A stretch of 36,166 nucleotides of DNA from Thermodesulfovibrionales bacterium (GCA_044450345.1 JBIOIY010000031.1:1-36166), one strand, 5' to 3'. Positions 1 through 25,156 are shown, numbered from the stretch's first letter. The notes: generated from the letters alone by a model not told the origin. A program made the numbers and translations.

Positions 1-139
1 AAGGAACGGTGTGCTATCCGGCGAATGCCTCGCCGCGAAAACCAATGGTAAGCCGTGTGCGGGAAATCCGCACGCACGGTTTGAAAGGGGGACTTGGGAA
101 CGGAGCGGTTTAACCGCCACCGCACCAGATTCTACCAAT
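1..139 (+). mobile_element. Group II intron, 3' end (domains V and VI); the 5' part lies outside the window
   Basis: Canonical DV AAGCCGTGTGCGG-GAAA-TCCGCACGCACGGTTT (50-82) with AGC triad (51-53), GAAA tetraloop and AC bulge. A DVI hairpin (87-136) with bulged A134 follows, ending ...CTACCAAT (AY 3' end at 139; 142 is an alternative in the same phase). Confidence 0.93.
3..113 (+). CDS. C-terminal fragment of the intron-encoded reverse transcriptase/maturase (partial)
   Basis: Frame 3 reads GTVCYPANASPRKPMVSRVREIRTHGLKGGLGNGAV* (TAA 111-113). This resembles C-termini of endonuclease-less intron RTs that read through DV. The RT motifs themselves are outside the window. Confidence 0.65.
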   Translation, partial: GTVCYPANASPRKPMVSRVREIRTHGLKGGLGNGAV

Positions 140-21782: not shown

Positions 21783-22958
21783 ATGTTTGAATTCAACAGG
21801 ATCAAAAGGCTGCCGCCCTATGTGTTCGCGATAGTGAACAACCTCAAGATGGAGGCGAGGCGAAAGGGCGAAGACATCATCGATCTCGGCATGGGCAACC
21901 CTGACGGGGCCACGCCGAGGCATATTGTAGATAAACTGGTAGAGGCGGCCAAAAAGCCGAAAAATCACCGGTACTCCGCCTCGAAAGGGATCACTCAGCT
22001 GAGGATGGCGATATGCGAGTGGTATAAGAGGAGGTACGACGTCAACCTCGATCCTGAATCGGAGGCGGTGGTGACGATAGGTTCGAAAGAGGGATTATCT
22101 CATTTGGTCCTCGCTACGGTGGGTCCGGGCGATATTGTTTTGACTCCTACTCCGGCATATCCGATACACCCTTACAGCGTGATCATAGCCGGAGGCGAGG
22201 TGAGGACCGTCCCCATAGGTGCGGGGATAGACTTCTTCGAAGAGATGGAGAAGGCATATAAAACCACATGGCCGAGGCCGAAGATGCTGATCATGAACTT
22301 CCCCCATAATCCGACAACGCAGGTTATGGAAGGCCTCGACTTTTTCAGAAAGATCGTTTATTTCGCGAAAGAGAACAAGTTGATCGTCCTTCACGACCTG
22401 GCATATGCCGACCTCGTTTATGACGATTATAGGGCCCCGAGTTTTCTCCAGGTCCCGGGTGCAAAAGATGTGGGCGTGGAATTTTTCTCTCTTACAAAAA
22501 GCTATTCCATGGCCGGATGGAGGGTGGGGTTCTGCTGCGGAAACAAAGAGATCGTCGGCGCATTGATAAAGATAAAGAGCTACCTCGATTACGGCATGTT
22601 CCAGCCCATCCAGATCGCAAGCATCGTAGCGCTCCGCGGACCCCAGGACTGCGTAGAGGATATTCGGGGGGTTTATGAGCGGAGAAGGAACGTGCTGGTT
22701 AAGGGGCTCAAGCAGGCGGGCTGGAAAATAGAGCCGCCGAAGGCGACGATGTTCGCCTGGGCGGAGATACCGGATGCGTTCAAGAAAATGGGATCTCTCG
22801 AGTTCTGCAAACTCCTTATCAGGAAAGGCGGCGTGGCCGTGTCTCCCGGTATCGGGTTCGGTGAAGGAGGAGATAATTTTGTGAGGTTTGCGCTCGTCGA
22901 GAACGAACACAGGATAAGACAGGCCACGGCCGGAATAAAGAGGGTATTGAACAAATGA
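21783..22958 (+). CDS. alaC: PLP-dependent class I aminotransferase, AlaC/LL-DAP aminotransferase-like
   Basis: [49 protein letters not shown]; adjacent to hom as commonly seen. Confidence 0.85.
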
Positions 22959-24253
22959 TAAATGTTGGGATTATAGGCTTTGGGACAGTAGGGACAGGGA
23001 CAGCGAGTATTCTCCTGAACAACAGGGGCCTTCTCAGGGAAAGGACCGGCATAGACATCAATCTCAGGAGGATAGCCGACCTCGATATCAAGAGAGACAG
23101 GGGCATCAGGCTGCCGAAGGGGATGCTCACCGCGAAGGTGGATGAACTCCTGGGCGACCCTGATATCCATATCGTGGTCGAACTCATCGGAGGCACGACG
23201 ATTGCGAAAGACCTCATCCTCAAAGCCATCAACAGCGGGAAACATGTGGTCACGGCCAACAAGGCGCTTCTTGCTACACACGGGGCCGAGATATTCAGGG
23301 CCGCAGGCAAACGGAACGTCGAGTTGGGTTTCGAGGCTTCGGTGGCCGGCGGGATACCGATCGTAAAGGTCATCAGGGAGGGGCTGGTGGCCAACAGGAT
23401 AAAGGCCGTGTACGGTATCATCAACGGCACCACGAACTATATCCTTACCAAGATGACCGAGGAAAAGGCGGAATTTTCAGAAGTCCTGAAGGAGGCACAG
23501 AAGCTCGGATATGCAGAGGCTGACCCCACCTACGATATAGAGGGGATAGATTCGGCCCACAAGCTCGCAATCCTTGCCTCGCTTTCCTACGGCCCCCGGT
23601 TCAGCATCAAGGACGTGTACCGTGAGGGCATATCCTGGATATCTCCAATGGACATCGAATTCGCCCGCGAGCTCGGATATAAACTCAAGCTTTTAGCAAT
23701 AGCGAAGGAGTCGGACGGTAAGGTAGAGCTAAGGGTCCACCCCACAATGGTGCCCGAGGAATATCTTATTTCAAAGGTGGACGGAGTATTCAACGCGGTA
23801 TATGTGGAAGGCGATGCCGTGGGATCGACCCTGTATTACGGGAGGGGCGCCGGAGACATGCCTACGGGGAGCGCGGTTGTAAGCGATATCGCAGATATAG
23901 CGAGGAATATAGTAACGAACTCCGTCGGCAGGATCTCACTGGACTCTTCCGGGAAGAAGAAGAATCTCATGAAGATGGATGACGTCCAGTCTATGTACTA
24001 CTTCAGGTTTTCGGCGATCGATAAGCCCGGCGTATTATCGAAGATCTCCGGAATACTGGGGAAATACAATATCAGCATCGTCTCCGTTATCCAAAAGGGA
24101 AGACATGAGGGGAAGGCCGTGCCGCTCGTGGTACTTACCCACAAGGCAAGGGAAAAAAATGTCCTTGCTGCGTTAAAAGAGATAAACAGGCTCTCGATGG
24201 TGGCAGGCAAGAGCGTTTTTATAAGGGTAGAGGGGAAAGAGGCAGGCCGTTAG
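22955..24253 (+). CDS. hom: Homoserine dehydrogenase with C-terminal ACT domain
   Basis: [54 protein letters not shown] domain. Confidence 0.97.
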
Positions 24254-24265
24254 GCCTAAAAATTA

Positions 24266-24342
24266 TAGAACCATACTCAGGACTTCCCCCGTGACGGATG
24301 CTCTTGCGAACTCCCGAGACAAGGATCCTTAGTATGGCTCCA
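24266..24342 (-). ncRNA. 77-nt GNRA-capped hairpin appended 3' to the 6S-like RNA
   Basis: UGGAGCCAUACU/AGUAUGGUUCUA, AGGAU/GUCCU, CCUUGU/ACGGGG, CGGG/UCCG, GUUC-GCAA-GAGC; many G-U pairs favour the minus strand; followed by UAAUUUUU. Confidence 0.65.
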
Positions 24343-24343
24343 G

Positions 24344-24533
24344 TATAGCTTATTGCGATACCCCAGATTCGGGAAACCCCTGAGCTCTTTTTTATAATGG
24401 GTGCTTCGATAGATGCTTCAGGCTTCCTCTTGCGAGGCATGCACACCACATCTAACTCCCGCTCCCTGACCCAGTGGCTTACTCCTCTGGTTTAACCCGT
24501 CCGGGGCAACGCAAGCTCTATATCTCCATGTCT
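24344..24533 (-). ncRNA. ssrS: 6S-like RNA
   Basis: Rod of ~180 nt: UAUAG/CUAUA, UUGCG-U-UGCCCCGGA/UCUGGGGUA-U-CGCAA, CGGG/CCCG, AAACC/GGUUU, a central bubble, then the 6S-typical GGGAGC/GCACCC helix, UAGAUGU/GCAUCUA and CCUC-GCAA-GAGG apex. It has its own promoter. Confidence 0.78.
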
Positions 24534-24539
24534 AATTAT

Positions 24540-24568
24540 ATTTTAGCTCGCCTAAAGCGGTCCGTCAA
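24540..24568 (-). promoter_or_regulatory. Sigma70 promoter driving the 6S-like RNA
   Basis: TTGACG-17 nt-TAAAAT; predicted TSS ~24533. Confidence 0.75.
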
Positions 24569-24637
24569 GAACGAAAACCGGTCGTTGAAATTTTTTCTGA
24601 CAAGTCTGTCCCAGGACCGCCATTCCCATCGGGGGCA

Positions 24638-24743: not shown

Positions 24744-24820
24744 TGAGATATGTTTATGGCGTGTGCGGACCCGTTATATTTCAGTGGCTTATTATCTCAA
24801 GAAAAGGAAAGGGGAGAACA

Positions 24821-25156
24821 ATGAAGACTCATTTGAGAATGACTATTATCTGCATGGTGTGCATGGGTGCTTTTCTATGGTGTCTTGGCTCGGCCGAAGC
24901 GGGGCAGGCGGACTGGAAAGTCCTTCAGCAGAGTACTTATGGCGACACTTTGTCTTATGATGCCGCGAGCGTAAAACATACGGAGAGCAATACGATAACG
25001 GTTTGGGCCAAAACTCAAAGCAGCGAGTATCTTTACGAAATAGATTGCAAAAATAAGAAAGCGCGCTTTCTTGAGGCAGCCGGCGCCGCCGGATCAGAGT
25101 GGTTCACTATTACGGGCGGAGGAGACGAATTGCTGTACAAAGCAGTGTGTCCTTGA
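24821..25156 (+). CDS. Small secreted protein (surface-adhesin E-like family)
   Basis: Signal peptide, ADWKVL..YDAASV..VWAK..YEIDCKNKK..LLYKAVCP pattern; start re-called after a GGAG RBS. Confidence 0.65.
   Translation: MKTHLRMTIICMVCMGAFLWCLGSAEAGQADWKVLQQSTYGDTLSYDAASVKHTESNTITVWAKTQSSEYLYEIDCKNKKARFLEAAGAAGSEWFTITGGGDELLYKAVCP

Follow-up and report, generated by a model that had tools for sequence, protein, structure and literature searches.

The 6S RNA is a very widespread bacterial regulator, the architecture of which is treated as a single rod. The locus described here raises the question of whether a 6S-like RNA can carry a second structured domain at its 3' end, and of what such a domain would do. 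It lies within a stretch of 36,166 nucleotides from a Thermodesulfovibrionales bacterium (GCA_044450345.1 JBIOIY010000031.1:1-36166), the whole of which is referred to as the window, and was first noticed in a first-pass annotation as a putative stand-alone RNA composed of a rod and a long hairpin.

Layout of the locus and its promoter

The following features were assigned, all of them on the minus strand except for the convergent hom gene.

24563..24568, minus strand: -35 hexamer TTGACG of the 6S-like RNA, from the promoter scan, and conserved in position as TTGAC(A/G) in the alignment of 29 relatives
24540..24545, minus strand: -10 hexamer TAAAAT of the 6S-like RNA, separated by a 17-nt spacer, from the promoter scan and the alignment
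24517..24533, minus strand: purine-rich 5' leader, from sequence and fold, with inferred boundaries
24352..24516, minus strand: 6S-like rod of 165 nt, from the fold and from covariation in 104 homologous rods
24398..24466, minus strand: apical stem-loop of the rod, aligning to Rfam 6S (RF00013) with 35.0 bits and E 1.9e-5
24343..24351, minus strand: A/U-rich single-stranded linker of 9 nt from rod to hairpin, from the sequence and the linkers in relatives
24266..24342, minus strand: 3' hairpin module in its short 77-nt form, from the fold, base-helix compensation and a match to covariance model R1
24258..24262, minus strand: U5 tract after UAUAA, the inferred termination point, from the sequence
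22955..24253, plus strand: hom (homoserine dehydrogenase), convergent with the RNA, with Pfam matches Homoserine_dh (4.2e-65), NAD_binding_3 and ACT

The near-consensus promoter TTGACG-17-TAAAAT (24568..24540, minus strand) that the first-pass annotation had reported was recovered by the promoter scan with 10 of 12 consensus matches, and the other elements that it had listed likewise lie where it placed them or a few bases away. One promoter-like site was observed in 1.6 kb, compared to 1.7 +/- 1.3 in shuffled sequences, and the promoter carries weight because of its conservation in relatives, not because of a single scan match. It stands at the same place in 29 aligned loci, and the strict pattern TTGACN-16..18-TANNNT was matched by 23 of 37 further loci. 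From this promoter we infer a transcription start near 24533 on the minus strand, followed by a leader that is predicted to pair partly with the linker. At the other end, the U5 tract (24262-24258) finishes 5 nt from the hom stop codon (24251-24253). In agreement with the earlier statement that no credible reading frame follows the promoter, the RNA contains a 76-aa GTG open reading frame (24219-24449, minus strand) and otherwise only short plus-strand frames, and no open reading frame inside the RNA region had a Pfam match. The minus-strand transcript from 24540 to 24255 (286 nt) folds with -107.5 kcal/mol (z -4.16), and 0 of 200 shuffles were as good. The locus probably represents a stand-alone non-coding RNA of about 275 nt transcribed from its own sigma-70-type promoter, a view covered by the joint probability given in the Discussion for the explanation as a whole.

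Two further features of the window were recorded. A small open reading frame (24812-25156, plus strand) with a signal-peptide-like N-terminus and a GGAG-type ribosome-binding site is oriented divergently from the RNA promoter; it had no Pfam hit and was absent beside the RNA in 28 loci of relatives, among which no conserved protein neighbour of the RNA emerged. At the contig start (48-120, plus strand), a group II intron catalytic domain (RF00029) was matched with 44.1 bits, above the cut-off of 40, and the rest of this intron would lie upstream beyond the contig end.

The rod as a relative of 6S RNA

The rod region (24527-24343) folds with -65.6 kcal/mol (z -3.08) on the minus strand versus -51.6 kcal/mol (z -1.56) on the plus strand, and its minimum-free-energy fold has the closing stem (GCUUGCG...AUCGCAAU), large central bubble (5' strand at about 24495-24470) and apical stem of the rod-like 6S fold. 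The rod of about 180 nt described earlier thus corresponds to a 165-nt structure (24516-24352), in which the alignment to Rfam 6S falls on the GGGAGC/GCACCC helix. At curated thresholds, an Rfam search of the whole window returned nothing at the RNA locus. Under permissive settings, 24466-24398 aligned to positions 59-132 (74 positions) of the 187 positions in the 6S model RF00013, with a score of 35.0 bits (E 1.9e-5) that is lower than the gathering score of 46.4 bits, which places the rod outside the family by score. A full-length match over the two-domain RNA, which according to the first-pass annotation would have removed the novelty, did not appear in Rfam, the 6S match being partial, sub-threshold and confined to the apical part of the rod. 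Within that alignment the apical stem follows the 6S consensus almost base for base, and the 6S apical signature GGUGNGCA...GGAAGCCUNAA with its GGG/CCC flanks, present in the rod, is nearly invariant among 104 rods.

Homologous rods were found by two routes. With the window rod as query, BLAST matched 33 of 60 related genomes, including 29 of the 36 that belong to the same family, and a pattern scan of species-representative genomes yielded 43 rod loci, all of them in MAGs titled Nitrospirota, Thermodesulfovibrionia or Thermodesulfovibrionales. A copy with 93% identity (L004/L041) is present in a MAG of the 'Candidatus Sulfobium mesophilum' type. When 20 pattern-matched loci were submitted to Rfam, each gave a 6S match at E<=0.1, and six reached the 6S cut-off of 46.4 bits (46.7-56.7 bits), five of them at full length and one, L054, in part (46.7 bits); L065, also among the six, is without the module. 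One more rod reached the cut-off among 20 module loci, and a 6S match of any kind was found in only 7 of the first 20 module loci. The window-type rod subfamily therefore straddles the Rfam 6S cut-off.

Covariation was assessed by mapping the predicted structure of the window rod onto the alignment of 104 rods. In this alignment 80.9% of the cells were paired and double changes occurred in 40 of 50 pairs, values somewhat favoured by the origin of the structure in one of the aligned sequences; 0 of 500 shuffles reached any of the five measures, and slid controls were 28-50% paired. Since the compensatory counts are large, though the structure was derived from one aligned sequence, the rod is a real, structured RNA of the 6S family.

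A canonical full-length 6S gene is located on another contig of the same genome (L001, G000:C61:6399-6581; 71.7 bits), with no 3' hairpin module behind it. Likewise, the genomes G014 (85.8 bits) and G101 (69.1 bits) contain a canonical 6S apart from their module copies. Because a canonical 6S exists elsewhere in the genome, the window RNA is a divergent paralog of 6S, and the presence of both suggests that they divide their tasks in the manner of Bacillus 6S-1 and 6S-2.

The 3' hairpin in this genome

The hairpin region behind the rod (24345-24262) folds with -41.8 kcal/mol (z -6.55) on the minus strand versus -23.5 kcal/mol (z -2.28) on the plus strand. As proposed in the first-pass annotation, a second long hairpin extends from 24342 to 24266 and ends near the hom stop; it comprises 31 pairs, seven of which are G-U, and is closed by a GCAA loop (24307-24304). 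Its base helix GGAGCCAUAC/GUAUGGUUCU is followed by UAUAAUUUUU, which contains the U5 tract. The earlier argument that wobble pairs indicate selection at the RNA level holds in view of the far more stable folds of the minus strand and the seven G-U pairs. A consensus terminator scan, the loop and stem limits of which exclude long hairpins, did not flag the 77-nt hairpin. Searching the 3.19-Mb assembly with an 88-nt hairpin query at E<=10 recovered the self-match only, and this single copy rules out a REP or other dispersed extragenic palindrome, a possibility raised at the outset.

Among congeners, the rod and the base of the helix are 81-92% identical, the hairpin interior 47-55%. Within the genus of the window the interior is shortened and the interior loops conserved elsewhere have been replaced, and the short form scored 26.6 bits (E 1.6e-4) against covariance model R1 and was missed under stricter filters. 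As judged from these sequence comparisons, the 77-nt GNRA hairpin evolves fast and derives, by shortening, from a longer module found class-wide.

Just past the U tract of the window, overlapping the hom stop, there is a small hairpin AGGCC-UAAC-GGCCU (24243-24256, minus strand) with a pyrimidine-rich stretch, and comparable GC hairpins are found behind the U tract of the closest relatives (L004-L006). The hairpin at 24243-24256 may serve as a back-up terminator.

Conservation of the module across the Thermodesulfovibrionia

A hairpin occupies the same place in 58 of 61 unique related loci from Thermodesulfovibrionia MAGs, while in the other three (L038, L056, L065) the RNA ends right after the rod. 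Its base helix GGAGCCAU.../...AUGGCUCU is conserved and carries compensatory changes in 7 of 10 predicted pairs across the 58 sequences. Position 3 of this helix is G-U in 39 sequences, G-C in 13 and A-U in 5, a distribution consistent with selection acting on the RNA strand. The module of most genera has a long form, about 105-120 nt in length, the inner helices and loops of which are conserved, among them GGUCAUCC, a GGC-13 nt-GCC apex, GGUUGUCCAA and an asymmetric GAAGCAG bulge. The helix is followed by a U-rich tail in most relatives and is separated from the rod by an A/U-rich linker of 8-12 nt.

Because indels misalign the interior of the module, RNAalifold resolved no more than its outer helices when applied to MAFFT alignments. 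Therefore, the module fold of one sequence was mapped onto the alignment, which was then realigned with a covariance model (R1) built from 30 long-form sequences, with the module ends of L019 and L045 set by eye. After realignment of 32 strong R1 matches, 80.3% of the cells were paired, with double changes in 20 of 33 pairs and 0 of 500 shuffles as high, in an alignment that was fitted to the structure and leans towards it and in which the inner P4 region is poorly resolved. Covariation of the 3' hairpin in homologues, which had been suggested as a check, was thus observed in the base helix and in the long form. The hairpin is a conserved module and neither a chance palindrome nor a REP.

No Rfam family was found for the module in 40 loci of relatives, and a permissive scan of the module alone (E<=10) gave one chance-level hit. 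Its size and GAAGCAG motif had suggested bacterial SRP RNA as a candidate, which was rejected: the module had no Rfam SRP match, and a canonical small SRP RNA is encoded on another contig (68.5 bits). What appears to be new here is that a conserved 3' module exists, that it is linked to extra 6S-like RNAs throughout the class and that it is also used behind other rods. Among the papers covered by a literature search on 6S RNA in Thermodesulfovibrionia or Nitrospirae and on retained terminator hairpins of paralogs, none described such an RNA. The rods may already be listed as 6S paralogs in the main 6S survey, which lies outside that set, and automated annotation would already name the higher-scoring rod copies 6S.

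Distribution of the module and its 5' partners

Searching 151 sampled genomes of the class with R1 detected the module in 47 of them, with 63 hits and one to three per genome. The hits are concentrated in two families, f18 (34 of 50 genomes) and the family of the window itself (4 of 5); in other families such as f10 (0 of 11) the R1 search did not find the module. A phylum-wide sample returned 0 of 151 genomes, which says little because the sample was without module-rich families and the model, under its stricter filters, also misses the short form of the window. With respect to copy number, two groundwater MAGs each contain three copies of the two-domain RNA on different contigs (L035/L052/L059 and L048/L066/L073), which points to a recent expansion of the RNA family.

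The upstream DNA was examined for 57 of the 63 hits. In 46 of these 57, the module follows a homolog of the window-type rod (nhmmer E<1e-5). A second type of rod, type B, precedes it in 7 (L085, L087, L093, L094, L125, L128, L130). Type B has the same closing stem, GCGAU/AUCGC, around another core (GUGAGCGGUAGG...ACACCUUAUCACUCAC) and carries small hairpins on both strands of the bubble. Four scanned members (L085, L087, L093, L094) had no Rfam 6S match, similarity to the window rod was at chance level, and type B may be one more 6S-like RNA that has escaped recognition. In 2 of the 57 (L088 and L089; G014:C21 and G026:C1) the 5' domain is of another kind again, type C, with about 150 nt behind a TTGACG-17-TAAGAT promoter that precede a long-form module. 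The type C module is a second copy in genus g8, in which the window-type copy has a degenerate module and a separate terminator. Behind the module, members of this genus (L013, L015, L019, L069) show a decayed U tail and, 10-15 nt further downstream, another GC-rich hairpin that has its own U tract; this second terminator was seen in the sequences and in the folds of L013 and L015, and the terminator scan flagged it in L019, not in L013.

Two loci depart from these arrangements. In L091 (G170:C1:1572590-1573204) the module, scoring 32 bits, has no rod in front of it but a promoter of its own (TTGACA-17-TACAAT) about 25 nt upstream, and this locus possibly encodes a stand-alone hairpin RNA of about 135 nt. 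In L105 (G130:C99) the module follows the 3' half of a rod only, the 5' half being replaced by unrelated sequence, and the locus is probably a disrupted copy.

Contigs from metatranscriptome runs

Metatranscriptome runs contained small shares of the RNA region, and four of them yielded short contigs. In run X1, two contigs of about 153 nt with 95-99% identity cover 24204-24357 (the hairpin and the end of hom) and 24338-24490 (the rod), and in run X6 a 208-nt contig from a more distant relative runs from the rod across the linker and then continues into unlike sequence at the start of the variable interior. The uncovered parts (24496-24627 and below 24204) are uninformative in these contigs. 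The contigs are compatible with co-transcription of rod and hairpin, although contigs of this kind from RNA libraries carry no information on strand, ends or abundance and could also stem from DNA.

Discussion

The results support the proposal of the first-pass annotation that the locus encodes either a variant of 6S to which a 3' domain has been added or a new 6S-related class, in that a partial Rfam 6S match is combined with a conserved, covarying hairpin. The explanation that we favour as a whole, with a probability of roughly 0.6, is that the RNA is a 6S paralog with a lineage-specific module that functions in this genome as a terminator and 3' cap. Judging by family resemblance, the rod most likely acts as 6S does. 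With its central bubble it would mimic an open promoter and, bound to the housekeeping RNA polymerase holoenzyme, fill the active-site cleft; the polymerase would copy a short product RNA from the rod, which would lead to release of the RNA. The module would provide an intrinsic terminator, consisting of base helix and U5, as well as a 3' cap against exonucleases, and the hairpin would probably be retained on the mature RNA. Because the interior drifts and the loops conserved elsewhere are gone, the hairpin in this genome is most simply viewed as a terminator and protective 3' structure. According to cryo-EM of the E. coli RNA, the closing stem of 6S reportedly sits in the downstream-DNA channel; by analogy, a 3' appendage would project from the polymerase and be free to bind something, which we regard as a lead and not as evidence.

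At least outside the genus of the window, the conserved loops, the several 5' partners and the persistence of the module in g8 beside a separate terminator argue that it does more than terminate and suggest a function beyond termination. The module might accordingly be a functional domain of its own, that is, a protein- or RNA-binding platform that stays attached or is cut at the linker to give a separate small RNA, with the short form of the window being degenerate. Conservation of the internal loops and the asymmetric GAAGCAG bulge of the long form across many genera speaks for such a platform, as do the occurrence of the module behind three kinds of rod-like 5' domain (window-type in 46 of 57, type B in 7 and type C in 2), the copy behind its own promoter in L091 and the fact that g8 keeps the module despite a decayed U tail and a separate downstream terminator. 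The single-stranded, A/U-rich linker of 8-12 nt between two stable structures points in the same direction; in the window this linker (24343..24351) is a possible nuclease site, cleavage itself being speculation. However, with an interior that is 47-55% identical within the genus of the window, a sequence-specific partner is unlikely there, and the stand-alone arrangement was seen in one copy of weak score (32 bits). As an account of the window RNA, an independent domain is unlikely, if still worth serious consideration. For the class, the comparisons allow the tentative proposal, doubtful as it stands, that the module is a portable functional RNA module of the Thermodesulfovibrionia, which is carried by rod-like polymerase-decoy RNAs (6S-like, type B and type C) and rarely occurs alone, and which recruits a partner or is released as a small RNA.

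A simpler scenario would treat the hairpin as an unusually long intrinsic terminator that is trimmed off, leaving an ordinary 6S paralog of about 180 nt as the mature RNA and conserving the base for termination efficiency alone. The U tract directly after the helix base in the window and most relatives, as well as the free drift of the interior within the genus, would be expected in this case, and trimming of the 3' ends of 6S RNAs is known (PMC10578484). Ordinary terminators, however, do not keep about 105 nt of internal structure class-wide, nor would one be kept where a second terminator follows, and the module is confined to rod RNAs at one to three copies per genome instead of being a general type of terminator, all of which makes this scenario improbable.

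We consider it very improbable that the rod resembles 6S in shape only and has another target, such as core polymerase (the case of Ms1), a holoenzyme with an alternative sigma factor or a partner other than polymerase. Its Rfam 6S score is partial and sub-threshold, the genome already has a canonical 6S, and the sister rods of types B and C that share the module are without any 6S match; yet the apical stem agrees with the 6S consensus at almost every base, homologous rods exceed the 6S cut-off at full length, and the architecture of closing stem, bubble and apical stem covaries. A DNA-level or chance feature, such as a REP-like palindrome or a bidirectional hom terminator, was largely refuted, for although hom ends 5 nt from the U tract and the plus-strand hairpin retains -23.5 kcal/mol (z -2.28), the hairpin is single copy in the genome, its plus-strand fold is much weaker, with the 7 G-U pairs becoming A-C on that strand, and hom lies downstream in only 12 of 28 loci of relatives, all 12 of them with the module. 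Because hom is convergent downstream in these 12 of 28 loci only, the hairpin is not primarily a hom terminator, and in this genome it may also stop hom transcription.

The favoured 6S paralog with its 3' module can be compared with several known systems. Similar to 6S/SsrS (RF00013), the window RNA has its own sigma-70-type promoter and no coding potential, and its rod, about 165 nt long, is built from a closing stem, a central bubble and an apical stem; the apical signature aligns to the consensus, and homologs pass the cut-off. In contrast, the window copy scores 35 instead of 46.4 bits and is a second copy beside the canonical 6S, and window-type RNAs carry a conserved 3' hairpin of 77 to about 120 nt that is matched by no Rfam family. 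The terminator hairpin of Bacillus 6S-2 is short and is not known as a conserved structured domain, whereas the window-type hairpin is 77-120 nt long and covaries, its loops are conserved in most genera, and rods that are not of 6S type carry it as well. Both RNAs are paralogs beside a main 6S (here as well as in G014 and G101), in two paralog pairs that arose in unrelated phyla. As a documented precedent, B. subtilis 6S-2 (bsrB) comes closest: its mature form has 211 nt, keeps a putative terminator hairpin and is trimmed by a few nt only, and its transcription, as proposed for the window RNA, starts at or near the mature 5' end (PMC10578484). Ms1 of mycobacteria (about 300 nt) is, together with 6S, one of two known types of polymerase-binding RNA (PMC11077062). 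Like Ms1, the window RNA is rod-like and longer than 6S, yet its extra length is a discrete 3' hairpin and not a longer rod. Ms1 reportedly binds the core enzyme. No sequence or model match linked Ms1 to the window RNA in an Rfam search that gave 6S and two chance-level hits and that may not have included an Ms1 model. Finally, the module resembles an intrinsic terminator in that a stable helix runs straight into a U tract where the transcription unit is predicted to end, and differs from such terminators in its 77-120 nt with internal loops, in a sequence that is conserved class-wide and in being kept beside another terminator.

In summary, a class of mostly uncultured, environmentally abundant sulfate reducers keeps one to three extra 6S-like RNAs beside the ordinary 6S, fused to a 3' hairpin that lies outside any RNA family library, and the same module is found behind other rod-like RNAs that current 6S models miss. 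A two-domain covariance model would improve the annotation of non-coding RNAs in Nitrospirota, where the present threshold misses the window copy. If the module is only a terminator and cap, it would represent a structured terminator under long-term selection and a marker for divergent 6S-like RNAs. If it binds a partner, 6S-type RNAs can be bifunctional, and if the tentative proposal of a portable module proves true, these RNAs would be 6S-type regulators with two functions, for which no phylum has so far provided an example.
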